Positions 1,941-28,190 of a stretch of 64,000 nucleotides of DNA are shown in pieces. Origin of the DNA: Dehalococcoidia bacterium (GTDB lineage: Bacteria; Chloroflexota; Dehalococcoidia; Plut-88900); the NCBI GenBank assembly GCA_965207225.1, contig CBDBLV010000005.1, positions 896,001 to 960,000 of the forward strand. The letters run 5' to 3'. The notes below the pieces were generated by a model. That model did not search any database, was not told the origin of the DNA, and saw only the letters and a list, made by a program, of their open reading frames with translations. Made by a program: the position numbers and the translations under genes. Within the stretch, counting starts at the first letter, position 1. Every line of letters starts with the position of its first letter.

Positions 1941-3068
1941 CTATTCCATCGAAAAGCCATAGATTCTGGCCGCATTCCCCCCGACTATCATCTGTTTCTC
2001 TTCCTCGGGTACGTCCCTGAAGGTGCGCTCGATGACCTCTCGGGAGTGGGGAAAGGTTCCCTCGTCGTGGGGGTAGTCGCTCCCCCATAATAGACTCTGC
2101 ACTCCGGTAACGTCCCTCATCCGGAGACCCACTAGATCATCCCCAAAGGTAGCTCCGCCCTGCCTTCGGAAGTAGTCGCTGGGCCTGTCTGGTAGCCGAG
2201 GCTCAATCCACATGTGCCGTTTCTCGTGCATCTCGTCCAGCGTCTGGAGGACCCAGGCAAGCCAGCCAATGCCGCACTCGACTAGGACGAATTTCAGGCC
2301 CGGGTGTCGTTCCAGGACACCGGAGGCCACCAGCAGGCACAGGGGTTTCATGGCAGCGGCCATCTCCACCACCTCGCCGGCAAGGTCCTCGCCGGGTCGG
2401 GAGCGCTTGACCTCGGTGGGAGTATCTTCGCCACTGGGGCCGTCGGTGAATACGTGTAGCGCGAGGGGGACTTCCATGTTGCCCATTGCCGACCAAAAAG
2501 GCTCATAGATGGGGTCATTGTAGGGCTGAATGGGCATGCTGATAGGGATGGAAGCAGACCTAAAACCCATGTTGGCTACGCGCGTGGCCTCGTCTATGGC
2601 GTTGTCAATGTCCAGGATAGGGACTACGGCTGATACGGCGAAGCGGTCTGGATGCGGTCCAAACACCTCGTGATAATAGTCGTTGTAGACCCGAGACAGC
2701 GCCAACTGGAATCCGGCATCTTTCGAAGAGAAGGTGTGGAATGTCCCGTGGGGATAGATTATCTCTGCACTAACCCCGTCGGTCTCCTGATCGGTAAGAC
2801 GGAGAGGGATGTCCGTACCTCCAGCGCGGTGCATGACACGGCCAACCTCTTCTTCGTCCCGCCAATAGCGCTTCATGTCGTCTTCGTTGAGCGGGTTTGG
2901 GGCCTCGATGCGAGCAGGCCCCTGGCCCTCGACAATGATGTACCGCTCTCCATCTCGTTCCTCAATGCGAGGTGCGCGCGAACGGTACTCGGGAGGAAGG
3001 CGGTCATAGACTTCCTGGGGCTCATTCAGATGGGAGTCCGCGGAGATTACCTTATATGCCGCCATCAC
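1941..3068 (-). CDS. Amidohydrolase family 2 protein
   Basis: ISADSH, LALH, ECGIGW, WGSDYPH motifs. Confidence 0.9.
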   Translation of the reverse strand: MMAAYKVISADSHLNEPQEVYDRLPPEYRSRAPRIEERDGERYIIVEGQGPARIEAPNPLNEDDMKRYWRDEEEVGRVMHRAGGTDIPLRLTDQETDGVSAEIIYPHGTFHTFSSKDAGFQLALSRVYNDYYHEVFGPHPDRFAVSAVVPILDIDNAIDEATRVANMGFRSASIPISMPIQPYNDPIYEPFWSAMGNMEVPLALHVFTDGPSGEDTPTEVKRSRPGEDLAGEVVEMAAAMKPLCLLVASGVLERHPGLKFVLVECGIGWLAWVLQTLDEMHEKRHMWIEPRLPDRPSDYFRRQGGATFGDDLVGLRMRDVTGVQSLLWGSDYPHDEGTFPHSREVIERTFRDVPEEEKQMIVGGNAARIYGFSME

Positions 3069-3131
3069 TTGCCTCGTTTGTGGTTCCTATCGGTCGCATC
3101 AATAAGGGAGCTTACTCCCTTAGATGGCCGG

Positions 3132-3899
3132 TTAACCCACCGCTGCGGGCGCTCTGGTGTATAGGAGGCTACCATAGCCTGTGATTGGAGCGTCCCAGCC
3201 CATCTTGTCAAGCAGACACCATATCGAGGCTTGGTTTGCAGTCACGACCATCTTACCCGTACGGTCTTCCAGCTCCTCTACGACCTCCAGGGAGCGCCAA
3301 CCCGTGCAGGAGACGAGAAGAGTATCGGCCTCTGGCAGACAATGCTCTACGCCGAACTCCAAGACCACCTCAGGATCATGGTTGCACATATTGAACCCGA
3401 AAACCGAGGCGTCGGCGGGCGTATCAACGTTCAATACCTCGAAGCCCTTGGCAGTGAAGTACTCCCGCAGCCGATCGTTGTTCCACTGGGGGTAAGGAGT
3501 TACAACGGAGACCTTCCTGGCCCCGATGTGAGAGAGCGCCGCAGCTACCGATGGCGTGGTGGCCACGGCAGGCACCCCCGACGCTGCCTCCAGCTTTTCT
3601 ATAATCTCCACATCCCACCCCGGGCCCCGGTAAAAGCTGCCGGTAGTGCAGCAATATGCCACGGCATCTACTTCGGCCTGCGTCAGGTATTTTGCCGCCG
3701 TGTCGATTTCATTGTTCATCCGGTCCATGCGGGCAGCGCCGGAGATGTCAAATCCGTCCCAGATGCGCTGGCCGTGAATGGAGTAGTCCTTCAGCCCCAA
3801 GGCCAGGGCGAAGTCGGCCTCGCTGGTCGAGTCCTGGGCGGGCATTATCAGTCCAATCCTCTTTCTCGGGCTCATACGCATGTCTCCTTCCCCACTCAC
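3132..3899 (-). CDS. Asp/Glu racemase superfamily (maleate cis-trans isomerase/EutA-like)
   Basis: Catalytic pair YCCTTGS and VSCTGW; VTPY; VTANQA. Confidence 0.88.
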   Translation of the reverse strand: MSGEGDMRMSPRKRIGLIMPAQDSTSEADFALALGLKDYSIHGQRIWDGFDISGAARMDRMNNEIDTAAKYLTQAEVDAVAYCCTTGSFYRGPGWDVEIIEKLEAASGVPAVATTPSVAAALSHIGARKVSVVTPYPQWNNDRLREYFTAKGFEVLNVDTPADASVFGFNMCNHDPEVVLEFGVEHCLPEADTLLVSCTGWRSLEVVEELEDRTGKMVVTANQASIWCLLDKMGWDAPITGYGSLLYTRAPAAVG

Positions 3900-3968
3900 T
3901 GGGACCCCGGTTTGCCGATGATACCAGAATTTGGAGGTGTGTATCCCATCAAGTTATACAAAGAACTA

Positions 3969-3995
3969 GGGCGTGAGAACTGAGTCCTCACGCCC
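3969..3995 (-). terminator. Hairpin, probable intrinsic terminator between the two racemase paralogs
   Basis: GGGCGTGAG...CTCACGCCC stem (11 bp with G-U on the minus strand) followed by TAGTTCTTT. Confidence 0.5.
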
Positions 3996-4041
3996 GACGT
4001 GCGATTCTATGTGCTTTTGGCGGGGTGTCAGTCCAATTTGC

Positions 4042-4794
4042 CTATCCGGCTACCGCTGCCGGGGCCGGGGTCTCCAGCAAACTCCCGAATCCCTTGACCG
4101 GCTCATCTATGCCCAAGTGCTGGAGGATAAGCCACAGGGTGGCCTGGTTGGACGTAACTACGGGTTTCCCAGTCTCCTTTTCCAAACGCTCGGCAGCTTC
4201 CATGGAGCGCCAGTCCGTGCAGGAGCAGAAGAGGACGTCGGCGTCTGGGTCACATTTTTCGATGCCGTACTCCACTATTTCGTCGGGTTCCTGCTCGTAG
4301 GCCATGATTTCCCCGAGGGACGGCTTTGGATGCGCGTCGACGTTCAGGACTTCGAACCCCCTGGCCTCCATGTAGGCCCGAAGCTTGATGTTGTTCCATT
4401 CGGGATATGGGGTGATGACCGAAATTTTGCGGGCGCCCTTGAATTCCAGAGCTTTCACGACCGATGGCGTAGTGGCAAAGGCCTGTACCCCCGACGCCCC
4501 CTCGATCTTCTGAAGCATCTCCTGGTCCCACCCGGGACCCTTGAAAAAGCTGCCGGTTGTGCAGGTGTAGGCTATGGCATCCAGGCGGACGGTCGATAGG
4601 TATCGAGCCGCCGACTCAATCTCCGAATTCATCTCCTGGAAGTGCGTCTCTGGATCGTGACGGTTGTCTCCTTGCCAGAGGCGGTGTCCGTGGACAGCCA
4701 CGCCTTTAGGTGCCAGCACCATCTGGAAGTCGGGCTCGGCGGTGCCGTCCGCCGACGGCATCATCATCCCGACCCTTTTCCTGCTTTCCATCAT
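4042..4794 (-). CDS. Asp/Glu racemase superfamily (maleate cis-trans isomerase/EutA-like), paralog of 3132-3899
   Basis: YTCTTGS and CSCTDW; ITPY; VTSNQA; starts 28 bp after the grdA stop. Confidence 0.88.
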   Translation of the reverse strand: MMESRKRVGMMMPSADGTAEPDFQMVLAPKGVAVHGHRLWQGDNRHDPETHFQEMNSEIESAARYLSTVRLDAIAYTCTTGSFFKGPGWDQEMLQKIEGASGVQAFATTPSVVKALEFKGARKISVITPYPEWNNIKLRAYMEARGFEVLNVDAHPKPSLGEIMAYEQEPDEIVEYGIEKCDPDADVLFCSCTDWRSMEAAERLEKETGKPVVTSNQATLWLILQHLGIDEPVKGFGSLLETPAPAAVAG

Positions 4795-4822
4795 CCACCC
4801 TCCTTCTCGATCATTGTGAGAT

Positions 4823-5281
4823 CTACGCCTTGTTCCGCACCTTGTCCAGGGCTTGAGCGATCTGGTCTTTCTCCAATGCCACGTCCATCACACCTACCTG
4901 CGCTTGATAGACACCGGCATCCACCGAGTCCTTAACCACGGGTTCCACCACGTGATACACCGGCAAGCCGAGGGGAACGCCCGCAAGGGGCCCGGCCCAG
5001 CTGGGGTCGCCGTGGGTCACGGTCTCAGCGTAGAGTTCGGCGCTGTTGGCATCGGGCGAGCCGAGCACCACGATAACGTCGTCCTTGCCGTTGGCTTCAA
5101 TTGCCTTCTTGATTTCTTCCTGACCATCCAGGTCCATGGCGCCCGCGGCAGTTCAGACGAAGCACTGGGTCTGCTCTATCAGCACCTCCGCCCCGGCGCT
5201 CCGGACCACCTCTGCGATGGCCGGGCCCTGTACCCCGTCCCGTTCTCCAATAGCGATTACTTTCTTACCCTTGAATTCCAA
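4823..5281 (-). CDS. grdA: Glycine/sarcosine/betaine reductase selenoprotein A (Sec at UGA 5155-5153)
   Basis: Read-through gives [22 protein letters not shown]...[14 protein letters not shown]...[26 protein letters not shown]; TTG start with AGGAGG RBS. Confidence 0.95.
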
Positions 5282-5363
5282 GGCGCACCTCCTGCTTTCC
5301 AAAGAAGGACCCGTCTGTTTCTTAACGTCAGCTGAACGGCTTTAGTCTACACCCAATTTCCGC

Positions 5364-6836
5364 TCAAGACTCGTGGTTGCGCTCCAGCATGAAGGAGATG
5401 CCATCTGCGAGCTGGGTCATGCGACCTAGAAAGAGGCTTCCTTTGGCGTAGAACATGGCCCGACTTATCTCGCCCGACAGGATCATGTCTCGGGCGTGGC
5501 CCAGGAACGGCACCGCCGAGGCTATATGGCCCTGGGTGGGGGAGAATCCTAGCATCCCGTGGTCCTCCACGAACTGCTCCAGGCCGGAGGCATCAATCTC
5601 GTTGGCCATGACCGCCATGCCGCCCAGCATCCTGTAGTTGGTGCGCGGGGTGTTGCCGCTGCCTTGGGGCTCGGTTATCTCCGGATTGTGGAGCTCGGTG
5701 GCGAACCGGTCTATGTCGGTTATCTTCAGGCCGTGCTGGTTAAGTGGATCAACCACTACCGCCTGGGTAATGGCCTGGTTGGAAGCCCCCGAGGAAATAT
5801 CGTGCTTCCCAATCATGTCTAGTCGCACATGGGGGTTCTGTCCGTCGTCCGGTCCCATAAGGACTGCAATGGAGGCCAGAACATCCTCCAGGACAGGCAT
5901 TTCGTTGGTGACATGCCCTCGGTATTTCATGCCGAGCTTGGCAAAAGACCCCCCGCCCACCACTGCCACATTTTCGAACACCCCGGACTTGATGAGCGCC
6001 CCGCCTACGATGATGGCGTGGTTAGGGGCACAGCAGAATGCCTTAACGTCCGACCCTGTGGCATTGAGGCACCCGCTCATCTCGCCGACGGCCTTGGCCA
6101 GGTTCCCGCCCCCGCGGTTGTACCGGTCCCCGATAGCCTCTTCCCCGCACCCGAGAAGGTAGTCTATGTTCTCGGCGGGGGTCTCCGTGACGGTGCTCAG
6201 CAGGTGCCGCAGAGCGAGGACCGCTGAAGCCTTGGCGCACAGGTTTTCGATCAGGAAGTCGGGAGTGAGGGACTTGTCCTCTTCGTGGCCTCTTCGCAAA
6301 CAGCCTACGAGTCGGGTTTTATCCATGTATAGGGGCAGGGCCTCTTCTTCTCCAATAGCTTTTTCGATTTCGGAAATCGGGGTCGGGTTGCCCAGATTGC
6401 TCAGGTCGTCATCGGAGACCAGGGGATGACCGGACATTGCGTGCCGGGCCTCTTCGAAAAATCCCTGCTCCAACCACATCAGGTCGAACTGGTCTGATGC
6501 TTTCATCCATCCGTAGAACTCTGCCTGGGGCATGATTTCGCCGTAGGGGCCGGTCCTGGAAGCGCTGTTGGTCGGGTTTTCGTACCAGGGCTTGGGCGTG
6601 GTCTTCAGGTCATCGGGACGGAGGTTCCCGACGAAGACCTGGTGAGGCGGGTAAGCCACGGCGTCATCGAAGCCGCGCTGGTGGCGGTGAATAAGGTCTA
6701 GAACTGATGGATCGACGGGAATGTCCCGGGAAGGCTTAGACCCGAGGCGTACCAGGTCCGGTACATGGGCCAAACAGTAGGCGACCCCCTTGATGACGGG
6801 GGCGCCTTTACCATTGCTTTGCGAGGACGATGTCAT
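5364..6836 (-). CDS. grdC: Glycine/sarcosine/betaine reductase component C, beta subunit
   Basis: YPPHQVFVGN, EEAIGDRYNRGGGNLAKA, KLGMK, ELHNPEIT, PTQGHI, KGSLFLGRMT motifs. Confidence 0.92.
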   Translation of the reverse strand: MTSSSQSNGKGAPVIKGVAYCLAHVPDLVRLGSKPSRDIPVDPSVLDLIHRHQRGFDDAVAYPPHQVFVGNLRPDDLKTTPKPWYENPTNSASRTGPYGEIMPQAEFYGWMKASDQFDLMWLEQGFFEEARHAMSGHPLVSDDDLSNLGNPTPISEIEKAIGEEEALPLYMDKTRLVGCLRRGHEEDKSLTPDFLIENLCAKASAVLALRHLLSTVTETPAENIDYLLGCGEEAIGDRYNRGGGNLAKAVGEMSGCLNATGSDVKAFCCAPNHAIIVGGALIKSGVFENVAVVGGGSFAKLGMKYRGHVTNEMPVLEDVLASIAVLMGPDDGQNPHVRLDMIGKHDISSGASNQAITQAVVVDPLNQHGLKITDIDRFATELHNPEITEPQGSGNTPRTNYRMLGGMAVMANEIDASGLEQFVEDHGMLGFSPTQGHIASAVPFLGHARDMILSGEISRAMFYAKGSLFLGRMTQLADGISFMLERNHES

Positions 6837-6847
6837 AGGGTGGGAGA

Positions 6848-8158
6848 CTAGGTGGAGAAGACGGTGGGCGATGCCACCTCGGTCTCGAGGGCTTCGAGGG
6901 CCTTCTTCAGCATGTCCTTTCGCAGCTCCTTTTCGCCTTCGTAGGACTGGCTCGGGTCTCCGACTGGATGTGGTATCGCCTTGCCCTTGACGATTCGGCT
7001 GGCCCCGACTCCTTCGGCAAGGTTGAACAAGGTTGTTACAAGGGCGGTCGGGAGTTCGGCCCTCTCCAGCTCCTTCTGAAGCGTAGCGCCGCTACGCGTG
7101 CCCGTGCCTCAGGTTGCTGTCAGGATCACCCCTTGAACCCCCGCCGACGAAAGCTCTGCGGCAATCTCCTGCCCGAACTGCTTGAAGCTGGCTATGGGGC
7201 CCATGTTGCCGGTCGTGCTGTAGACGTAATCGTGGAGTTTGCCGATGTCTCCTTCTTTTTCCATTTCCCGTGCGGCGTCCAGCGGCACCATGCGGTTGGG
7301 CTCCGCACTGGCAGCCGTGGTGTCGAAGCCGCCGTGGATACTCTGGAACTTGTCGGGGGTCATCTCCGGTTCTTCGGCGGTGTCGAACCTGACCCACTTG
7401 GTGGCCCACCCCGACTCCAGTTTTTCGGGGTTGCCCCGGTGTACGATGCCGCCTTCGGTGACGATGGCTATGGTGGAGTCGGAAGCGCTGGCCAGGGCCT
7501 GGGCAGGCGGGACCTGCTCGTACTTGGGAAGAGGCCATTCCGTTTTGGGGTCCTCGCCTCTGAGCTTGCGCATGAGCATGTCGACAGCCCGCTCGGCGGC
7601 CGTCTTGTCTGAAAAGCGGTTAACTCGGCGTCCCGTGGGGAGGTAGCCTTCCTCCATAGCTGGGCCCAATTCTTCCTTGTTCACCAGCTTGGATGCGAGG
7701 CTTGCTATGGTGGACATGGCTTCGGCCATTCCTGCAGCCGAGTCCTTGGTGGATGCCATCAGGACCTTGCCCTTAAAGGTCTCGGCGGCGGGGCTGTCCT
7801 TGTGGACACCGGTGAGAGCGGGGATATCAAGGCTTTCCTTGACCGCCTGGCAGACCTGCCCGCAGGCCAGGCCGTATCGACCTGAGCCGAAACCCGGGCC
7901 CGCAATTACGATGTCGGGCTTGAACTGGGAGATGAGCTCGACGACTTCCTGGGTCGTCTGCTCCGAGTTCTCGGAGATGTAGTTGTCGCCGCAGTAGACG
8001 GTGCCTATGACTTCCCCGGCACCACTGAGGGCATTGTTAAGGGCCATGCCTGGGCCGACGGCGCCTTCTTGCGCGCCGGGGCCGATGTCGGCCTTCTCCT
8101 CGCCGCCAACTCCGGCAAAGAACTGGTTCAGGTAGTGGACAACCTTGAATTTCGCCAT
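6848..8158 (-). CDS. grdB: Glycine/betaine/sarcosine reductase selenoprotein B (Sec at UGA 7111-7109)
   Basis: KVVHYLNQFFAGVGGEEKA, AGPGFGSGRYG, HGGFD; reads through VILTAT-U-GTGTRSGATLQKELER into the 6848-7030 ORF (IPHPVGDP). Confidence 0.93.
7081..7097 (-). promoter_or_regulatory. Putative bacterial SECIS hairpin of grdB
   Basis: GCGTAGC-GGC-GCTACGC, a perfect 7-bp stem starting after an 11-nt spacer from the UGA, with G in the loop. Confidence 0.7.
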
Positions 8159-8241
8159 TTTCCTCTCCCTCTTCACGCTCGCCCAACTGCTGTTGCAAGA
8201 CTCGGATTTCGGCTCGCATTATACACGACAGGCCCGTGCAG

Positions 8242-9261
8242 CTAGTCCGGGAATGCGGGCATTACGTGCTCGGCGAATAGGCGCATGGATTCCAGCACCT
8301 CCTCGTGTGTCCCGCCAAAGCTCATGTTGGCGCAGACGTACTTGATGCCCAGGTCTCGGTATTGCTCGACCTTTTCGATGGCCTCGTCGGGCGTACCGCT
8401 TATGACGTTGTCGAAGACCTCCCAGGGTTCGTAGGGGACGTTCTGGGGTTCGATCATGCCTTCTTTGACAACACTGGGCCCCGTGTAGACGGTGACGAAC
8501 TGCTGGTGGTTGTAGTGCAGGTGGTTCGCCTGCCGTTCCAGGACATCCCTGTTCTCGGATACGAAGGTGTTGCGAAGAATCAGGAGAGGGCATTCCTCCT
8601 CCGTCTTGCCATACTCATCGAGGGCATCTGAGTAGACCTCGTAGGTGTCCTCGAGAGCTTCAAACCCGCTGCGCAGAGGCGTGTTCATCAGCTTGTAGCC
8701 GTGGGAGACCGCGTACTGTACCGAGAGGTCAGACTGGCCCGACATCCAGATCGGAGGGTGAGGATCTTGGAGGGGCCGGGGGAGAACAGTGGTCTCCGGG
8801 AACTGCCAGAAGTCCCCCTCGTAAGAGAAATCATCCTTGGATGTCCAGGCCTTTATCATGATGTCCAGGCATTCATTGAACATGGCCCGGTTCTGGTCTC
8901 GGGGAATCTGCAGCCGTTCAAACTCATGCACGAATGCCCCCCGCCCGAGCCCAATCTCCAGCCGGCCCTCCGACAGCACGTCGGCAAAAGCAATGTCCTG
9001 CGCAAGCCTGAGGGGGTGATAGAGTGGTATCGGAATCACCGCCGACATAACCCGCAGCTTAACCAGCTGCGAGACCCTGACCGCGAACATCAGGAGGTTC
9101 GGGACAGCCAGGTAGTTCATAAAATAGTGTTCAGGAATAACGACGGCGTCGTAGCCAAGTTGCTCTGCGTACTGGGCCTGGTATTCGGCTTCCTTGTAGA
9201 GCTCGGCAGCAGGCTTGGCTTTATCCGTGTAGTAGCAGGGTAGGTAGTAGCTGAATTTCAT
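8242..9261 (-). CDS. Luciferase-like (LLM) flavin-dependent oxidoreductase
   Basis: IPEHYF, HPLRLAQD, GRLEIGLGRG, PRPLQDPHPPIW. Confidence 0.9.
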   Translation of the reverse strand: MKFSYYLPCYYTDKAKPAAELYKEAEYQAQYAEQLGYDAVVIPEHYFMNYLAVPNLLMFAVRVSQLVKLRVMSAVIPIPLYHPLRLAQDIAFADVLSEGRLEIGLGRGAFVHEFERLQIPRDQNRAMFNECLDIMIKAWTSKDDFSYEGDFWQFPETTVLPRPLQDPHPPIWMSGQSDLSVQYAVSHGYKLMNTPLRSGFEALEDTYEVYSDALDEYGKTEEECPLLILRNTFVSENRDVLERQANHLHYNHQQFVTVYTGPSVVKEGMIEPQNVPYEPWEVFDNVISGTPDEAIEKVEQYRDLGIKYVCANMSFGGTHEEVLESMRLFAEHVMPAFPD

Positions 9262-9286: not shown

Positions 9287-9709
9287 TTAGATTAGTTTTC
9301 CGTCTTCATCGTAGACGCTTCGGTCGCCGCCCGGGGCCCAGCTGAATATCAGGGCAAGCAAGGGCTCTTCGCTGGTGATTTTCATGGCATGGGAGGTAAA
9401 GGAGTCGCCATAGATAATGGTCCCCGGCTCACACACGAACGAGTCTTCACCCCAGGTGCAGTCGGCGGTGCCCTGGATTATGTAGTATGCCTCGGGCCAG
9501 GCGTGGGTGTGGGCGGCGTAGTCGGTGCCGGGGTCAATCTGCAGGACGCCGGCGTGGGCGTCTTCAGTCTTCAGGTGGGCATTGGGCCCGATAAGTGACT
9601 TCTGCTTAAAGGTGTCCAAAAGAGACTGGGGATAGTTGCCATATGGTTTCATTTCACCCAGCTCGTAGTTATTGATGTGGTTGGGCCCATATTCTTCTCT
9701 GCCTGCCAT
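9287..9709 (-). CDS. Cupin protein resembling cupin DMSP lyases (DddK/DddW/DddQ type)
   Basis: HTHAWPEAYYIIQG ... SHAM metal motifs; PLLALIFSW. Confidence 0.7.
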   Translation of the reverse strand: MAGREEYGPNHINNYELGEMKPYGNYPQSLLDTFKQKSLIGPNAHLKTEDAHAGVLQIDPGTDYAAHTHAWPEAYYIIQGTADCTWGEDSFVCEPGTIIYGDSFTSHAMKITSEEPLLALIFSWAPGGDRSVYDEDGKLI

Positions 9710-9719
9710 TGTGAGCCTC

Positions 9720-11363
9720 CTATCCAGCATCTCTGTTATAGACTTGCTTGCCGTCTACCCACGTCTGGTCGATGCGGATGTCCTTCAACTCTTCCTCCGG
9801 CGCCGTCAGGGGGTCCCGCTCCAGCACCACCAGGTCGCCGAGCTTGCCCACTTCTATGGACCCCTTTACCTGTTCCTGGAATTCAGAGTAGGCGGAATTC
9901 CACGTGTATATCCGTATGGCCTCTGCCACCGACACCTTTTCCTCGGGTTCCAGGAGGTCGCCGGAGTAGGTCCGACGGTTGACCATACACCAGAGTCCGA
10001 ACATGGGGTTGACGAGCCAGGGGTCTGTGCCCGTGCAGTCGGAACTGCCGGGCACATTAAAACCGGCGTCCAGCAGCGTCCTGAAGCGGAAGGACGGATG
10101 ACTTCTCTCAGGCCCGAGATACGGTGCCACGAACTCAGCAACGCTGTAGATGAACGCTGGATTGGGGCACGGGAGTATCTTGGCGCTGGCAAGTCTAGAA
10201 ATAGTCAAATCATCCCGGAGCAGTACATTGCCCACATGCTCCGCCCGATGCCTGAGAGACGTGTCGTCTCCCACGCCCGCGGGGATGCCGAATACGGTCT
10301 CGAAAACGTCGATCAACTGCTTGATTGCGCGGTCTCCGTTGGTATGCATGCGGAGTTGAAGCCCGGCCCTGTGCACCTTACGGACTATCCTGCGGAGCTC
10401 CCGGTCGTCATATCCGAGCTTGCCCGTGATGTCGGGGTGGCCTTCATAGGGGTCCACGAGGGCTGCGGCCCTGGCCGAGAACCCGCCATCGTTGAACAGC
10501 TTCACCCCCCCGAGCCTGAACCACTCATCATCAAACTCAATCCCTCCTATATCCCCTTCGAGCACTTTGTCGAGGGACAGGGTGCCGGGCACGTGGATGT
10601 AGACGCTTAACCGCAGGGGCATTTCGCCGGAGTCGATTAGTTCCCTCATCGCCGTCAGGCCCGACACCGTCTCAGACTTCTCCTGCACATTAGTGACGCC
10701 GTTTGCGAGGAATCGCTCGTGGCCCGTGCGCCGGATAGCGTCCTTAACCGTATCGTAGTCAGGCATGGGGACTGGTAGGCGGTGGTACATGTCCTTCATG
10801 CGACCTGTCGGCTGCCCGGAGGCGTCCCGCTCGATAATCCCGCCCTGGGGATCGGGGGTGTCGGCGGTAATGCCGGCAATCTCGAGGACCTTGGAGTTAA
10901 CCACCACCATGTGATAGCTGGTCTTGAAGAGTATGGGATGTTCGACGCTGACGCGGTCCAGATCGTGACGGTCGGGGTAGCGCTTCTCTCTAAGGCGCAT
11001 GTCCTGGAACAGGCTGCCTTGAGCGATAATCCACTCTCCTCTGGGGGTGGCTGCCGCGTGCTCACGCAGGGTGTCCAGAATGTCGTCGATGCTTTCGTGC
11101 GGCGGCGTGTGGCAACTCACCGCAAGCGCTAGCCCCAAACTCGTAAGTTCCAGGTGCGTGTGGGCGTCGTTGAAACCGGGTAGAAGAGCCCGACCGGCCA
11201 GGTCGACTACCCGTGTCCCTTCTCCCTTCGCCCGCAACACCTCGGCCTCAGGCCCTACAACGGAGATCTTGTTACCGTTGATTGCAACGGCCTCTGCTAC
11301 CGTATCCCGCGCATCGACGGTTATCACCTTGCCGTTGTGAAATATGACGTCAGCTTGAGGCAT
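9720..11363 (-). CDS. Amidohydrolase family 3 (YtcJ-like)
   Basis: LLPGFNDAHTH, VKLFNDG, HTNGDRA, RHRAEH, GSIEVGKLGDLVVL. Confidence 0.9.
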   Translation of the reverse strand: MPQADVIFHNGKVITVDARDTVAEAVAINGNKISVVGPEAEVLRAKGEGTRVVDLAGRALLPGFNDAHTHLELTSLGLALAVSCHTPPHESIDDILDTLREHAAATPRGEWIIAQGSLFQDMRLREKRYPDRHDLDRVSVEHPILFKTSYHMVVVNSKVLEIAGITADTPDPQGGIIERDASGQPTGRMKDMYHRLPVPMPDYDTVKDAIRRTGHERFLANGVTNVQEKSETVSGLTAMRELIDSGEMPLRLSVYIHVPGTLSLDKVLEGDIGGIEFDDEWFRLGGVKLFNDGGFSARAAALVDPYEGHPDITGKLGYDDRELRRIVRKVHRAGLQLRMHTNGDRAIKQLIDVFETVFGIPAGVGDDTSLRHRAEHVGNVLLRDDLTISRLASAKILPCPNPAFIYSVAEFVAPYLGPERSHPSFRFRTLLDAGFNVPGSSDCTGTDPWLVNPMFGLWCMVNRRTYSGDLLEPEEKVSVAEAIRIYTWNSAYSEFQEQVKGSIEVGKLGDLVVLERDPLTAPEEELKDIRIDQTWVDGKQVYNRDAG

Positions 11364-11491
11364 GTCGGAAGCCGGCTGGAGAGGGGGCCAGAAGCGGCCC
11401 AAAACATACCTTTACCCGGCTTCGGTGTCAATTGGGAGGAGGCATGTTTTACATAGGGGGGTGATAAACTGACTGATGGCATTCAAGACAG

Positions 11492-23238: not shown

Positions 23239-25530
23239 CTAGCCCCGGGCCTTGATGGCTTCGCGAACGGCGGTGGGGTTCATAGGGAGAGTCTCCAGCC
23301 TTACGCCTACCGCGTCGGCGATGGCATTGGCCAGGGCCCCCGCGGGCGGGATGATGTTCGCCTCCCCGACACCCCGCACACCGTAGGGGTGACCGGGGTT
23401 GGGAACTTCAACGATCACGGTGTCGATCATGGGTAGGTCGAGGCTGGTGGGGAGGCGGTAATCAAGAAGGCTGGAGTTGACGACCTGGCCATCCTGGTTG
23501 AGGAAATACTCTTCGTTCATGGCCCAGCCGATTCCCTGGGCGCCGCCGCCCTGCAGCTGTCCCTCGACGTAGCTGGGATGGATGGCCTTGCCCACGTCCT
23601 GGACCATGGTGAAGCGGAGGATCTTCACCTTGCCGGTCTCGGGGTCGACCTCCACGTCGGCAATTGATCCAGCGAAGGACGCCCCAGCCTTGGTGGCCTG
23701 GACGTTACCCACTCCAACAACCGGCTCGCCGGTCTCCTCGATCTTGGAGGCGAGTTCGGCGAACGTCATCTTGAGTTCGGGGTCCGACTCGGAGAAGAAA
23801 ACGCCCTTTTCGAACATTATGGAGTCGGGGTCGATGTCCCAGATGGTCGCGGCTCGGGCCAGCATCTGCTGCTTCACGTGCTCGGCAGCTTCGTGGGCCG
23901 CGAGGCCCTGCTTGAAAGTAACGCTGCTGCCGCCGGTGCCGTTGGTGTAGCCCACGGAGTCGGTATCGACAACTCCAGGCACCACGCTCTCAGCGGGGAT
24001 GCCGAGGGTCTCGGCGGCCATCATGGCGATGGTTGTCCTGGTGCCCCCGATGTCGGGAGACCCTTCCCGAAGGGCGACGGTGCCATCCGCATTGACCTTA
24101 ATGGTGCAACTTGCCGGGCCTCCAAAGTTCATCCAGAACCCGAGGCCCACGCCCCGTCCTTGGTTTTCACCCTCTAGAGGCGTGTTCCAATGGGGATGGT
24201 CTTTCATGGCCTGGAGCACTTCAACACACCCAACCTTGGGGTGCGGTACGCTGTCGGCCCTGCGGGTACCTTCTTTGGAAGCGTTGTTGATCCGGAAGTC
24301 GATGGGGTCCATACCGACCAGGGCTGCGAGTTCATCTACGACGGTCTCGGAGGCGAAGGAGGCGTTGGTGGCACCCGGGGCCCGGTAGGCAGCGGTCTTG
24401 GGCTTGTTGACCACTACGTCCAGACCGTCTATCAGGACATTGGGAATGTCGTAGGGGCCGAATACACAGAGGGCTCCAGCACCGACGGGTGATCCGGGAT
24501 AAGCACCGGCCTCGTAGGCGAGGTAGGCCTGCGCGGCCGTGAGTTTGCCATCGTTGGTGGCGCCCATTTTGATCCTGATGTATGAGCCGGGGGTCGGGCC
24601 CGTGCTCTCAATCTCTTCGGAGCGGGTCATGACAATCTTGACCGGGTGTCCTGTCTTCTTTGAGAGAAGTGCAGCAACCGGGTCTCCGTAGGGCTCGAAC
24701 TTACCCCCGAATCCACCGCCGATCTCCATGGGCACGAGATTGACCTGTGAAACGTCCAATCCAAGGATGCTGGCAGTGGCATCCCTGACCTCGAAGGGGC
24801 CCTGGGTGCTGCACCATATGGTGACCCGGCCATCGCGGTTCCAGAATGCGGTGGCGTTGTGGAGCTCGATATAGCCCTGATGGACGGTCTTGGTGTCGAA
24901 CTCCCGCTCGATGACGTGGTCGGAATCTGCGAAGGCCTTTTCCACGTCGCCCATAACGTGTTGGAAGTGGCTGGCAACGTTGCTCACCTTGTCGGTCTGC
25001 TGGCCGAACTCCTCGGTCTTGAGGTCGTCGTGGAGAAGGGGAGCGCCGTCGGCGATGGCATCGCGGACGGTGGGCACGGGGTCGAGGACTTCGTACTCGA
25101 CTTCTATGAGGTTGACGGCTTCCTCAGCGACGTGGGCGTTGACTGCAGCTACTCCGGCCACTGGGTGTCCGGGGTACAGGACTTTCTTGCTGGCTAGCAC
25201 GTTGTCGCGCATAAAGCGCAGGCTCATGCTGATCTCGCCCATCTGCATTTCACCTTCCTGCGTGCCGGAGGGAAAGTCTGCTGCGGTTACTACTGCCTTG
25301 ACGCCCGGATAGGCTTCTGCCCTGGAGGTGTCTATAGAGATGATGCGGGCGTGGGCGTGGGGGCTGCGAAGAATCTTGCCGTGGAGAAGGTCGCTGGTCT
25401 GGAAGTCTGCGCCGTAACGGGCGCGGCCGGTAACCTTGTCAACTCCGTCGTGCCTGATGGGTCGGGTGCCGATGGTGTCATATTCACCTGTAGCCAGGAC
25501 AACGTTGGGTTCGTAGTCGGTAGTAGTCAT
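23239..25530 (-). CDS. Xanthine dehydrogenase family molybdopterin-binding large subunit
   Basis: DKVTGRARY, LRSPHAHA, IGGGFGGK, AYRAPGA, VEGQLQGG, RGVGE. Confidence 0.93.
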   Translation of the reverse strand: MTTTDYEPNVVLATGEYDTIGTRPIRHDGVDKVTGRARYGADFQTSDLLHGKILRSPHAHARIISIDTSRAEAYPGVKAVVTAADFPSGTQEGEMQMGEISMSLRFMRDNVLASKKVLYPGHPVAGVAAVNAHVAEEAVNLIEVEYEVLDPVPTVRDAIADGAPLLHDDLKTEEFGQQTDKVSNVASHFQHVMGDVEKAFADSDHVIEREFDTKTVHQGYIELHNATAFWNRDGRVTIWCSTQGPFEVRDATASILGLDVSQVNLVPMEIGGGFGGKFEPYGDPVAALLSKKTGHPVKIVMTRSEEIESTGPTPGSYIRIKMGATNDGKLTAAQAYLAYEAGAYPGSPVGAGALCVFGPYDIPNVLIDGLDVVVNKPKTAAYRAPGATNASFASETVVDELAALVGMDPIDFRINNASKEGTRRADSVPHPKVGCVEVLQAMKDHPHWNTPLEGENQGRGVGLGFWMNFGGPASCTIKVNADGTVALREGSPDIGGTRTTIAMMAAETLGIPAESVVPGVVDTDSVGYTNGTGGSSVTFKQGLAAHEAAEHVKQQMLARAATIWDIDPDSIMFEKGVFFSESDPELKMTFAELASKIEETGEPVVGVGNVQATKAGASFAGSIADVEVDPETGKVKILRFTMVQDVGKAIHPSYVEGQLQGGGAQGIGWAMNEEYFLNQDGQVVNSSLLDYRLPTSLDLPMIDTVIVEVPNPGHPYGVRGVGEANIIPPAGALANAIADAVGVRLETLPMNPTAVREAIKARG

Positions 25531-25611
25531 GCTCTCCCCCTGAAATGCTGAGTGGGTACCTCTCGGGACGGGCTGGCCCTATTCTACCCGATTCCGGTGT
25601 CGATACTACCC

Positions 25612-26907
25612 TCAATATGCCGTACCGGTTAGCTTACCTATTCCAAAGGTCTGGGTAGCTCCGAGAATCTGGGTGATTCGGGTAGCGAACGAATTCCTTG
25701 GATCGTCACCCGACACGAATATCGCATTGCCGCCTATGACGCGGTCAACGGGCGGAAGGACTACTTCTTGCTCATAGTTGCCGGTGCTGACGATGGATTC
25801 GGCTTCCGGAGTGAAGTAGACGAATCCGGTGTCGTCGGGGGTTTGGGCCATCTCGGGGCTGAGGAGTGTTGCACTTATGGCTGCCCTCTCACAGTTTCTG
25901 ATGAGCAGCATGGGGTCGACGGCCAGGTGTCCGCCGCCCATCCAGGATATGACAATACCGTCGGCGGTCATCATCCTGAGGAGCTTGGTGGCGTAACCAG
26001 CGCCCAGTTCCTTCTCTGTCAGTTTCTCCGGGCCGGCCGGGACGAGGAGGACGCCCAGGAAATTGAGGTCCCTTCCATGCCGCTGGTAGAGATGGTTAAT
26101 GAGGGGGTTATTCAGGTGATGATAGATGGTCGTCCTGACTGCGCCTGGGGTGTTGAATGGGCGGTACAATGCGCCGTCCATGAGTTCATTGGGATGAAGC
26201 AAGGTAGGCTGCCATCCTATCGATTGGCCATATAGGAATTCACCCATGACCTGCGCACAATAGGCGACCCGAGGCAGGCCCGGGTCAACATCCGTAAGCT
26301 CGTAAGTGTCGATAGAGGAAGATTGTAGGCCTGCTACGGTCTCGGCGAGATAGGATGCCAGCCCAATCTGCGCTTCCCTGATAGCCAAGTTCAGGCGCTG
26401 GCTGAATGCCGACCCGCGGATAGTGTTAATCATCTCAAGGTCTTCGGCGGGAGTTTCGGGGCCTGGAACCTTGGGAGTGACTTCCACGACCAGATTTGCG
26501 TTTTGAGAGAAGGGGGAATACCGGGCCCCGGGGCCAGACATGTCCAGCAGGGCTTCCCGCCAGTAGTAACCTTCACCGGGTGCGGGTTCGGACGTGGACA
26601 GGACGGCCATTCCGGTGAGTCGGGCAGTCCTGCCGCTGCCGACCTGCGTGGGCGGGCCTAGGACGCCTGGGAAGACGCAGCCGGCCCCCGACTGCTTGGC
26701 TCGGGGCTCGACCACATCCACGGCGTGGATGATCCGGGTGGAGTCGCCGGGGTGGGCGACGTGGACGGTTACGTCTTCGAAATAAGCATCGTCCATCATC
26801 CTGGCTCGGACATCACAGGCGTCCACGTAGAGTTCGCCGTCTGCGTAGCGGGTCTCGTCACTCAGGCTAATGTGTTTCACGGGATAGTTGGCGAGTTCAA
26901 GTTTCAT
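25612..26907 (-). CDS. Glycine/sarcosine/betaine reductase component B proprotein (GrdE/GrdI-like)
   Basis: MKLELANYPV, DVVEPRAK, VGSGRT, DMSGPGARYSPFS, PTLLHPNELMDGA, NNPLI, IVSTGN. Confidence 0.88.
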   Translation of the reverse strand: MKLELANYPVKHISLSDETRYADGELYVDACDVRARMMDDAYFEDVTVHVAHPGDSTRIIHAVDVVEPRAKQSGAGCVFPGVLGPPTQVGSGRTARLTGMAVLSTSEPAPGEGYYWREALLDMSGPGARYSPFSQNANLVVEVTPKVPGPETPAEDLEMINTIRGSAFSQRLNLAIREAQIGLASYLAETVAGLQSSSIDTYELTDVDPGLPRVAYCAQVMGEFLYGQSIGWQPTLLHPNELMDGALYRPFNTPGAVRTTIYHHLNNPLINHLYQRHGRDLNFLGVLLVPAGPEKLTEKELGAGYATKLLRMMTADGIVISWMGGGHLAVDPMLLIRNCERAAISATLLSPEMAQTPDDTGFVYFTPEAESIVSTGNYEQEVVLPPVDRVIGGNAIFVSGDDPRNSFATRITQILGATQTFGIGKLTGTAY

Positions 26908-27020
26908 GTCGTTCTCTTGGAGGGCTGACCGAGACTATATCGAATATCAAGGGTTTGGATGATACTATGGAGGGCATCCCGGGCTAAAGAAGCAGTACAG
27001 CCGTCGGTACAGGGGGGAAC

Positions 27021-28190
27021 ATGAAATATCAATTCACCGGAGAAGAGCAAGCATTTCGGCAGGAGGTGAAGGACTTTCTCGCCAAAGAGTGGTCGGACGA
27101 CTCCTTCGCCGTGGAAGGCAGCGAAGAGGCCCATGTAACCGAGATGAACATGCGCAAAAAGCTGGCCAACCAGGGCTGGCTTGCCCTCTCCTGGCCCGAG
27201 GAGTACGGCGGCGCGGCCGCGAGCCACATGCAGCAGGCCATCTTCACCGACGAATGGTCCTATGCTTACGCTCCCGGCCGAGATGGCGAAGGCATCGGGT
27301 ACATAGGACCGGCCATAATGGTGCATGGGACGGAGGAGCAGAAGAAGCAGCACCTGGGTGGCATTGCGCGGGGCGAGGTGGTGTGGTGCCAGGGGTACTC
27401 GGAGCCGGAGTCGGGGTCGGATCTGGCTTCGCTCGGGACTCGGGCGGTGCTGGATGGCGATGAGTGGGTGATCAACGGGCAGAAGATATGGACGTCCCAG
27501 GCCCACTACTCGGACTGGATTCTGTTACTGGCCCGCACGGACCCCGACGCCCCCAAGCACCGGGGCATCACCATGTTCCTGGCCGACATGAAGACGCCCG
27601 GCGTTTCGGTAAGGCCAATTATCGACATGTCGGGGGGGCATCCTTTCAACGAGACATTTTTTGACAACGTGAGGATTCCCAAGGAGAACGTGGTGGGGGA
27701 GATAAACCGGGGTTGGTATGCCGGGATGACCCTGCTGGACTTCGAGAGGTCATCGCTATCTCACTCGGCTGCGGCCCGGCGGTGTTTCGACGAGACCGTA
27801 AAGTTCGCCTCGGAGACGATAGTGGATGGGAAGCCGCTGATTCAGCACCCGATGGTGCGCAACAAGCTGGCAGAGATGGCCATCGAGGTGGAGATTGCCT
27901 ACATGCTTTCCTACCAAGTAGTGCACATCCAGAGCAGGGGCGAGGTGCCCAATAAAGAGGCGTCCATCGACAAGCTGTGTGGCTCCAGCACGGAGCAGAG
28001 GGCCTTCAACACAGCAATGGAGATTCTGGGATTGTACGGGCAGTTGGTCGAAGGGTCCAAGCACGTTCCGCTCAAGGGATTCATCGAGAAGAACTACCTC
28101 TTCACGCGGTCCAGCACGATAGCGGGCGGCACGAACGAGATACAGCTAAACATCATCGCGACCCGGGGGCTGGGGCTGCCGAGGCAGTAG
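27021..28190 (+). CDS. Acyl-CoA dehydrogenase
   Basis: WCQGYSEPESGSDLASL, NGQKIWTS, TIAGGTNEIQ. Confidence 0.95.
   Translation: MKYQFTGEEQAFRQEVKDFLAKEWSDDSFAVEGSEEAHVTEMNMRKKLANQGWLALSWPEEYGGAAASHMQQAIFTDEWSYAYAPGRDGEGIGYIGPAIMVHGTEEQKKQHLGGIARGEVVWCQGYSEPESGSDLASLGTRAVLDGDEWVINGQKIWTSQAHYSDWILLLARTDPDAPKHRGITMFLADMKTPGVSVRPIIDMSGGHPFNETFFDNVRIPKENVVGEINRGWYAGMTLLDFERSSLSHSAAARRCFDETVKFASETIVDGKPLIQHPMVRNKLAEMAIEVEIAYMLSYQVVHIQSRGEVPNKEASIDKLCGSSTEQRAFNTAMEILGLYGQLVEGSKHVPLKGFIEKNYLFTRSSTIAGGTNEIQLNIIATRGLGLPRQ

Follow-up and report, generated by a model that had tools for sequence, protein, structure and literature searches.

Grd enzymes are energy-conserving reductases of Stickland-fermenting anaerobes, and their value to the cell lies in the acetyl phosphate obtained from GrdC/GrdD. 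Within protein C, the phosphorolysis step belongs to GrdD. The D-proline reductase (Prd) needs neither GrdA nor GrdC. Excerpts of the published record describe protein C (GrdC and GrdD) as making acetyl phosphate and place the pyruvoyl group of C. difficile GrdE on a peptide starting at residue 242 (PMC9908766). In excerpts on fluoroacetate reductase, FarE shares with GrdI the lack of both cysteines and is likewise no proprotein, and FarB has no CxxC (PMC10838667). Homologs from Dehalococcoidia have been termed glycine reductases in a serpentinite paper, in whose text a term search returned neither GrdC nor GrdD (PMC9751293). Literature searches, with supplementary files outside their scope, returned no description of a GrdD-less Grd system in Chloroflexota. 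Here we analyze a 64,000-nt stretch of a Dehalococcoidia genome (GCA_965207225.1, contig CBDBLV010000005.1, positions 896,001–960,000; hereafter the window), in which grdB, grdC and grdA form one tight minus-strand operon, with a UGA-encoded selenocysteine (Sec) predicted in both GrdB and GrdA. On balance, gene content and motifs favor a working, pyruvoyl-independent, GrdD-independent and selenium-dependent Grd variant, styled like betaine or fluoroacetate reductase.

A preliminary description, made from the sequence alone, had proposed a non-canonical Grd operon with grdB, grdC and grdA in the same orientation and two in-frame UGA codons. The family models matched, and because both TGAs lie exactly at the Sec positions of their families, they are not there by chance; we assign both as selenocysteine codons. 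GrdA and GrdC are 47–53% identical to their Photobacterium counterparts and score above their equivalog cut-offs, GrdA with a CxxU motif. For comparison we used ten related loci from nine Dehalococcoidia metagenome-assembled genomes (MAGs) and one Anaerolineales MAG, mostly single-chromosome assemblies. All ten keep the gene order grdB-grdC-grdA. Both the locus of the window (L008) and the ten related ones retain the grdB TGA, and the grdA TGA is present in 11/11 Chloroflexota loci read. The motif CFVUTAAG is identical in these 11 loci and in Eubacterium acidaminophilum, and Photobacterium differs by one Ala-to-Ser change (CFVUTSAG). Local hairpins follow both UGAs, and the grdB hairpin recurs downstream of the Sec codon of a grdB paralog (L022). 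A genome-wide search recovered SelA, SelB, SelD and tRNA-Sec. In comparison with a relative of ~85% GrdC identity, grdB, grdC and grdA had ratios of nonsynonymous to synonymous substitution (dN/dS) of 0.05–0.07; the ratio is rough because dS is near saturation, and the three genes are under purifying selection. The selD gene (G000:C5:649975–650898, outside the window; G000 denotes the window's own genome) has one in-frame TGA, and selenophosphate synthetase is probably itself a selenoprotein in this genome.

The absence of GrdD, which the preliminary description had noted for the cluster, extends well beyond it. The genome of the window yielded no match to either PF02504 or NF040747, and NF040747 had no match at all in the ten related genomes. 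GrdC was detected in 17 of 401 sampled Chloroflexota genomes, a tally that counts the window's genome and also G048 and G282, which are marked unpublished and enter no other result. None of the 14 other published GrdC-bearing genomes had a GrdD above the cut-off; eight gave only 19–34-bit matches, and similar below-cut-off matches occurred in 6 of 14 control genomes. As positive control, the authentic GrdD encoded beside grdC in Photobacterium scored 549 bits. The three genome sets searched (1 + 10 + 14 = 25) may overlap in species. The neighborhood also offered no GrdD substitute: only grdE, grdB, grdC and grdA were common to three divergent contexts (the window, L032 and L033). Acetate kinase (AckA) was found in 0/11 genomes (the window's own and the ten relatives) and phosphotransacetylase (Pta) in 1/11, the Anaerolineales genome, which fits the earlier suggestion of a different fate for the GrdA-bound acyl group. 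Haem-copper oxidase subunit I (COX1) was detected in 10/11 genomes, and we classify the host lineage as oxygen-respiring, marine-type Dehalococcoidia. As a separate observation, PF02504 (PlsX/FA_synthesis) had no match anywhere in the window's genome (the relatives were searched with the GrdD model alone), and this genome may lack, or have replaced, the acyl-phosphate-dependent route to phospholipids.

The statement that grdE and trx are missing was accurate for the cluster, which contains no grdD, trx or grdE, but not for the genome, where we found seven dispersed GrdE-like genes (PF09338; contigs 3 and 5 carry three each, and the window one more, 17 kb from the operon) and a full-length TrxB-like gene (282 bits, below the cut-off of 343). 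The ten relatives have 3–9 PF09338 matches each, some of them fragments. In an alignment, the cysteine at column 242 was present in all three references and in none of 13 Chloroflexota GrdE-likes, of which two retain the second processing cysteine. Both copies of E. acidaminophilum GrdG and Photobacterium GrdE carry N241-C242 and C246. The lack of a pyruvoyl-forming cysteine would fit a quaternary nitrogen or sulfonium compound or another substrate from which no Schiff base can arise. Model scores of the GrdE-likes were far below threshold for GrdG (203–229 bits, cut-off 780), and the FarE model matched all seven at 97–136 bits (cut-off 675). A PDB sequence search returned no relatives of GrdE or GrdC. 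The GrdE of the window is, of the seven, closest to the operon-linked GrdEs of the relative at 72% GrdC identity (55% and 52% identity). That locus reads MFS transporter, grdE-grdE-grdB-grdC-grdA, then flavoprotein and Amidohydro_3 genes, and the Anaerolineales locus (60% GrdC identity) reads grdE-grdB-grdC-grdA, GntR, aldehyde dehydrogenase, SDR, grdE and a second grdB. Because these distant relatives have grdE directly upstream of grdB, we take grdE-grdB-grdC-grdA as the wider pattern, from which the grdE genes appear to have moved away in the window's clade.

Three of these places have features of their own. In the window (23239–27506, minus strand), grdE adjoins, across an 81-bp gap, the large subunit of a xanthine-dehydrogenase-family molybdenum-cofactor (MoCo) hydroxylase; it overlaps the stop of an upstream 200-aa open reading frame (ORF) without Pfam match, and two luciferase-like (LLM) genes lie further downstream. 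The GrdE-like protein may serve in a GrdB-free context there. On contig 3 of the same genome (L024:4838–14044), three tandem GrdE-likes are flanked by two family III CoA-transferase genes on each side (four in total), which may bear on a CoA-linked product fate or may reflect mere family expansion. The second grdB of the Anaerolineales relative (L033:16960–18255) has a non-TGA in-frame stop besides its Sec codon; pseudogenization or a misassembly could explain it.

GrdB, the component that sets substrate specificity, has diverged from the reference forms. The preliminary description had left its placement to a tree; the window protein fell below the cut-offs of the GrdB (TIGR01917; 463.8 bits, cut-off 602.2), GrdF (507.5 bits, cut-off 800), GrdH (438.5 bits, cut-off 775) and PrdB (83.4 bits, cut-off 300) models, and five reference-type proteins all scored above the GrdB cut-off (610–774 bits). 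In a midpoint-rooted maximum-likelihood tree of 44 rows, built without GrdH, PrdB or FarB, the window GrdB, its paralog and the 72% relative formed one clade (support 100/98); its sister is a clade with UxxCxxG, and the clade of reference GrdB and GrdF proteins (support 100/99) does not include it. The E. acidaminophilum megaplasmid contained only two grdG-grdF pairs and one grdA. References carry STUGTCTRCG (UxxCxxC) at the Sec position, and the window GrdB, its paralog and close relatives carry UGTGTRSG (UxxGxxS). Among 28 other Chloroflexota GrdB homologs readable at this site (from 29 loci), UxxCxxC was most frequent (15), followed by UxxSxxC (4), UxxCxxG (3), UxxSxxS (2), UxxGxxC (2), UxxGxxS (1) and UxxAxxC (1). 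The second Sec-GrdB of the genome (L022:9053–10381; G000:C5:1360053–1361381) is 55% identical, shares UGTGTRSG and stands alone, with small Pfam-less ORFs upstream and a convergent amine-oxidase-like flavoprotein and two Zn-dehydrogenases downstream. A fragmented Chloroflexota genome (G365, 74% complete) had ten GrdB-family matches (L040, L054, L058, L061 and L063–L068) with five different post-Sec motifs, and one of these matches has an internal TAG.

For GrdC, a fold model built with 70 homologs (predicted local distance difference test (pLDDT) 89) replaced a discarded eight-sequence model (mean pLDDT 39). Its best matches among solved folds were FabH/KAS III, OleA, PqsBC and thiolases (probability 1.00, E down to 4.5e-10), and some GrdC homologs carry Pfam ACP_syn_III; we assign the modeled protein to the KAS III/thiolase fold. 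Cys268 is invariant in 70/70 aligned homologs and lies between a strand (260–265) and a helix (270–283), a site that we take, by comparison with the FabH motif, to be the nucleophile-elbow position of KAS III.

Because the GrdD subunit and the self-made cofactor site are absent, the substrate is probably not glycine and the product is probably released in another way. From gene content, motifs, conservation and absences we infer a substrate class, a GrdB–GrdE pairing and a release route. Sec-GrdB, together with one or more of the seven uncleaved GrdE-likes, would attack a carboxylate at its alpha-carbon, the leaving group being one that departs without Schiff-base formation (candidates are quaternary ammonium, sulfonium or halide). 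The carboxyalkyl group would then be transferred to the Sec of the canonical GrdA, and GrdC, as a KAS III-type protein with an invariant cysteine, would accept it as a thioester. In a genome without GrdD, acetate kinase and phosphotransacetylase, the acyl group would probably pass from this thioester to CoA (as acyl-CoA) or to water (as free acid), and not leave as acetyl phosphate. A wider scheme seems unlikely to us: oxygen-respiring marine Dehalococcoidia would employ this Sec enzyme family, otherwise known from strict anaerobes, as a modular catabolic toolkit, in which two Sec-GrdBs and seven cofactor-free GrdEs combine for reductive cleavage of C-N or C-S bonds in several methylated osmolytes (betaines, sulfonium compounds) or other alpha-substituted acids, a shared GrdA-GrdC pair delivers the acyl groups to CoA without passing through acetyl phosphate, and, in this clade, the whole is wired to the DMSP-lyase-like cupin and to a racemase for chiral substrates.

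Several points weigh against this GrdD-independent variant. The pairing of GrdB with GrdE across unlinked genes is assumed. UxxCxxC is retained in the 15 homologs counted above, in a phylum where GrdD is also absent, so that loss of CxxC and absence of GrdD are not tied to each other. Because the tree holds no GrdH, GrdI, FarB, FarE or PrdB references, it leaves room for a GrdH-like position. The invariant cysteine of GrdC is shared with the canonical protein, so nothing in GrdC marks an altered release step. Folds of 65 nt downstream of the UGAs were not better than shuffles (z 0.06, 0.38 and −0.46; 0.06 for grdB), and the genome itself, in five contigs, is 92.3% complete with 8.3% contamination.

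The preliminary description had further reported two racemase-like paralogs 28 bp after grdA, followed by an amidohydrolase gene, and coordinates and Pfam agree with it. It suggested that these isomerases feed the reductase. The substrate would then be chiral at the alpha-carbon, with rac1 (perhaps also rac2) interconverting its enantiomers in the manner of PrdF, a reading that we regard as doubtful. The short grdA-rac1 gap and the position of the terminator-like hairpin, found only after rac1, speak for it, as do the small family (three rac paralogs in the genome, two of them here) and the strong constraint on both genes (dN/dS 0.02–0.04). Adjacency of grdA and rac1 recurs in 8/10 related loci, all with at least 83% GrdC identity, and on one 1.1-kb metagenome contig (grdA 77%, rac1 71% identity), but it is absent at 72% and 60% GrdC identity. 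The gap widens to ~170–210 bp in five of the eight linked loci. That contig is also the only one of 17 metagenome contigs with rac relatives (34–71% identity) to carry a grd gene; the other 16, including those with several kb of flank, have none. The link is weakened further for rac2, which comes after the terminator-like hairpin. In one relative (L028:13029–14154) an opposite-strand PIN-domain ORF (150 aa) and a 220-aa ORF, together toxin-antitoxin-like, separate the two genes, and an equally long insertion occupies the site in two other relatives.

The rac proteins themselves, ~50–52% identical to each other (tblastn), match Pfam Amdase (rac1 108.7, rac2 118.4 bits; cut-off 25.9) and Asp_Glu_race, not the proline-racemase family, and score below the cut-offs of the EutA (137 and 127 bits, cut-off 318) and arylmalonate decarboxylase (95 and 111 bits, cut-off 225) models. 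Their nearest solved relatives are the hypothetical protein 4ix1, maleate cis-trans isomerases and arylmalonate decarboxylases (E 1e-15 to 1e-8); rac1 matched maleate isomerase 4fq7 at E 6.6e-14 and 2xec at 1.2e-13. Both cysteine motifs of the family, putatively catalytic, are present in rac1 and rac2. In the 4fq7 alignment the cysteine of YTCTTGS in rac1 matches a chain cysteine, and the chain cysteine of the second motif falls one column off that of rac1. The wider family (~56% identity) is common and auto-labelled maleate isomerase, and superfamily membership says nothing about substrate. Maleate isomerase takes part in nicotinate-type N-heterocycle breakdown. Also against the link, the third rac paralog of the genome lies in a Grd-free cluster (L086:911–10453; G000:C5:1811911–1821453) with a MoCo hydroxylase, Amidohydro_3, Amidohydro_2, an MFS transporter and an isochorismatase-family gene, rac standing between Amidohydro_3 and Amidohydro_2 plus MFS, a layout reminiscent of such breakdown. 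Adjacency of racemase and Grd genes is confined to one subclade, and their coupling, as a sub-hypothesis, is only partly supported. Among readings that leave the racemases aside, an ordinary glycine betaine reductase of the GrdH/GrdI type, making trimethylamine from scattered genes, is distinctly unlikely. GrdE-likes without the cleavage cysteine agree with GrdI as excerpted in PMC10838667, and some GrdC and GrdB homologs bear the JGI label 'betaine reductase', but the GrdH model gives the window GrdB no advantage over the GrdF and GrdB models, GrdD and the CxxC of GrdB are missing, and the transporter in the cluster is of the MFS type, with no BCCT/OpuD-type transporter there. A fluoroacetate-reductase-like reductive dehalogenase acting on haloacetates would likewise lack both processing cysteines in its E subunit and CxxC in its B subunit (FarE and FarB as excerpted in PMC10838667), and the FarE model does reach all seven GrdE-likes; its scores, however, lie below even those of the GrdG model, and we consider this reading highly improbable. 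Least probable of all is a classical glycine or sarcosine reductase whose GrdD and pyruvoyl functions come from unrecognised proteins, or else a decaying relic. Its GrdA and GrdC are canonical by NCBIfam equivalog models and the name glycine reductase is in use for Dehalococcoidia homologs (PMC9751293), yet GrdB misses the GrdB and GrdF cut-offs, no GrdE-like has Cys242 and no GrdD was found in the 25 genomes; intact reading frames, conserved Sec codons and low dN/dS speak against decay.

The surroundings of the operon are listed in Table 1. From Amidohydro_3 down to rac1 the intergenic gaps are −11, 25, 65, 11, 61 and 28 bp, and 142 bp then precede rac2. The rac1/rac2 hairpin is the sole strong terminator-like hairpin of this string, and rac2 and Amidohydro_2 are probably a separate transcription unit from the grd operon; promoter-like and terminator-like sites are consensus matches whose numbers are not above those in shuffled sequence. 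Eight of the ten related loci (83–99% GrdC identity) keep the entire block, from an M19 dipeptidase through Amidohydro_2. Paralogs were counted by tblastn with an E-value of at most 1e-8 and coverage of 60% or more. Amidohydro_2 has 79 in the genome, and its adjacency therefore carries little weight. LLM oxidoreductases have 61, and the LLM-to-grdB spacing widens to 0.45–1.7 kb in relatives. We rejected amidohydrolases and LLM as functional partners of grd, as families of 79 and 61 make adjacency weak evidence. Other large families include MFS transporters (17 of a single type) and Amidohydro_3 proteins (8). The cupin shows weak similarity to DddQ-type lyases in PDB (E 3.7e-6 to 2e-5), with the HxHxxxExY residues aligned, Tyr included; its linkage to grd is seen only in the same eight related loci. 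We count its place in this gene string in favor of the reading given in the preliminary description. All or part of window positions 3100–8300 is contained in 22 public runs from 10 studies, none recorded as RNA. By label, five of the runs are sponge metagenomes (share 0.32 in the highest, 0.11–0.19 in the rest) and two are marine metagenomes (0.29 and 0.16); run labels are no evidence of habitat.

Table 1. Genes and signals of the grd locus and the GrdE-like gene, in window positions.
Feature	Position	Strand	Remarks
Amidohydro_3 family hydrolase	9720..11402	-	first gene of the tight string; Pfam
Cupin with DMSP-lyase-like motif HxHxxxExY	9287..9730	-	Pfam DMSP_lyase 42.9 bits, cut-off 27
Luciferase-like (LLM) flavin or F420 oxidoreductase	8242..9261	-	Pfam/NCBIfam; 65 bp upstream of grdB
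grdB-like selenoprotein B	6848..8176	-	442 aa from GTG 8176; likely ATG 8158; Pfam GRDB E 1.3e-136
grdB Sec codon TGA	7109-7111	-	only in-frame TGA, codon 356; motif TATUGTGTRSG
Local 7-bp hairpin, possible selenocysteine insertion sequence (SECIS)	7081..7097	-	14 nt after the grdB UGA; suggestive only
grdC, protein C beta subunit	5364..6836	-	490 aa; NCBIfam reduct_C_beta 653.8 bits, cut-off 450
grdA selenoprotein A	4823..5302	-	NCBIfam reduct_selen_A 203.7 bits, cut-off 130
grdA Sec codon TGA	5153-5155	-	codon 50; canonical motif CFVUTAAG
rac1, Asp/Glu-racemase superfamily (Amdase/maleate-isomerase-like)	4042..4794	-	starts 28 bp after the grdA stop
Promoter-like site between rac1 and rac2	4004-4031		consensus match
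Terminator-like 12-bp hairpin, rac1/rac2 intergenic	3969..3995	-	consensus-type match
rac2, paralog of rac1	3132..3899	-	Pfam Amdase + Asp_Glu_race
Amidohydro_2 family protein	1941..3068	-	Pfam
Promoter-like site just upstream of Amidohydro_3	11403-11431		10/12 consensus matches
GrdE-like protein without pyruvoyl-forming Cys	25612..26907	-	431 aa; PF09338

GrdD and the pyruvoyl site have been lost from this branch, as has CxxC in the window's clade, and its host genomes encode haem-copper oxidases and dozens of flavin monooxygenases and no acetate kinase. We suggest that the Sec-GrdA/GrdB machinery is probably put to a different chemical use here, the catabolic cleavage of compounds that do not lend themselves to Schiff-base formation. 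Should marine osmolytes be the substrates, the outcome would be an unrecognised route of methylamine or dimethylsulfide release, and of carbon uptake, in an abundant ocean- or sponge-associated lineage. The defined four-protein set and its panel of seven E subunits are open to biochemical testing.

Among described systems, the betaine reductase of Peptoclostridium (Eubacterium) acidaminophilum (GrdH/GrdI with GrdA, GrdC/GrdD and Trx/TrxB) shares with this locus a Sec-containing GrdB-type protein, a non-pyruvoyl GrdE-type protein, a CxxU GrdA and GrdC. It differs in that the present system has no GrdD, a GrdB without CxxC that scores far below the GrdH cut-off (a comparison by model score), and seven unlinked GrdE-type genes, in an oxygen-respiring host without AckA and Pta. 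FarB/FarE of Cloacibacillus porcorum MFA1, as excerpted in PMC10838667, resembles it in a B subunit without CxxC, an E subunit without either processing cysteine and a shared GrdA; that organism, by contrast, is an anaerobe that keeps grdC and grdD, and the FarE model scores low here (97–136 against 675 bits). The glycine and sarcosine reductases of Peptostreptococcales and Photobacterium belong to the same families with the same Sec positions, whereas N241-C242...C246 (GrdE/GrdG), UGTCTRCG (GrdB/GrdF) and a grdD beside grdC, all present in those references, have no counterpart here. The D-proline reductase PrdA/PrdB with PrdF is also a Sec reductase with a neighboring racemase-superfamily gene, but PrdB scores only 83 against 300 bits, and the neighbor in the window is of the Asp/Glu-racemase/maleate-isomerase type rather than the proline-racemase family.

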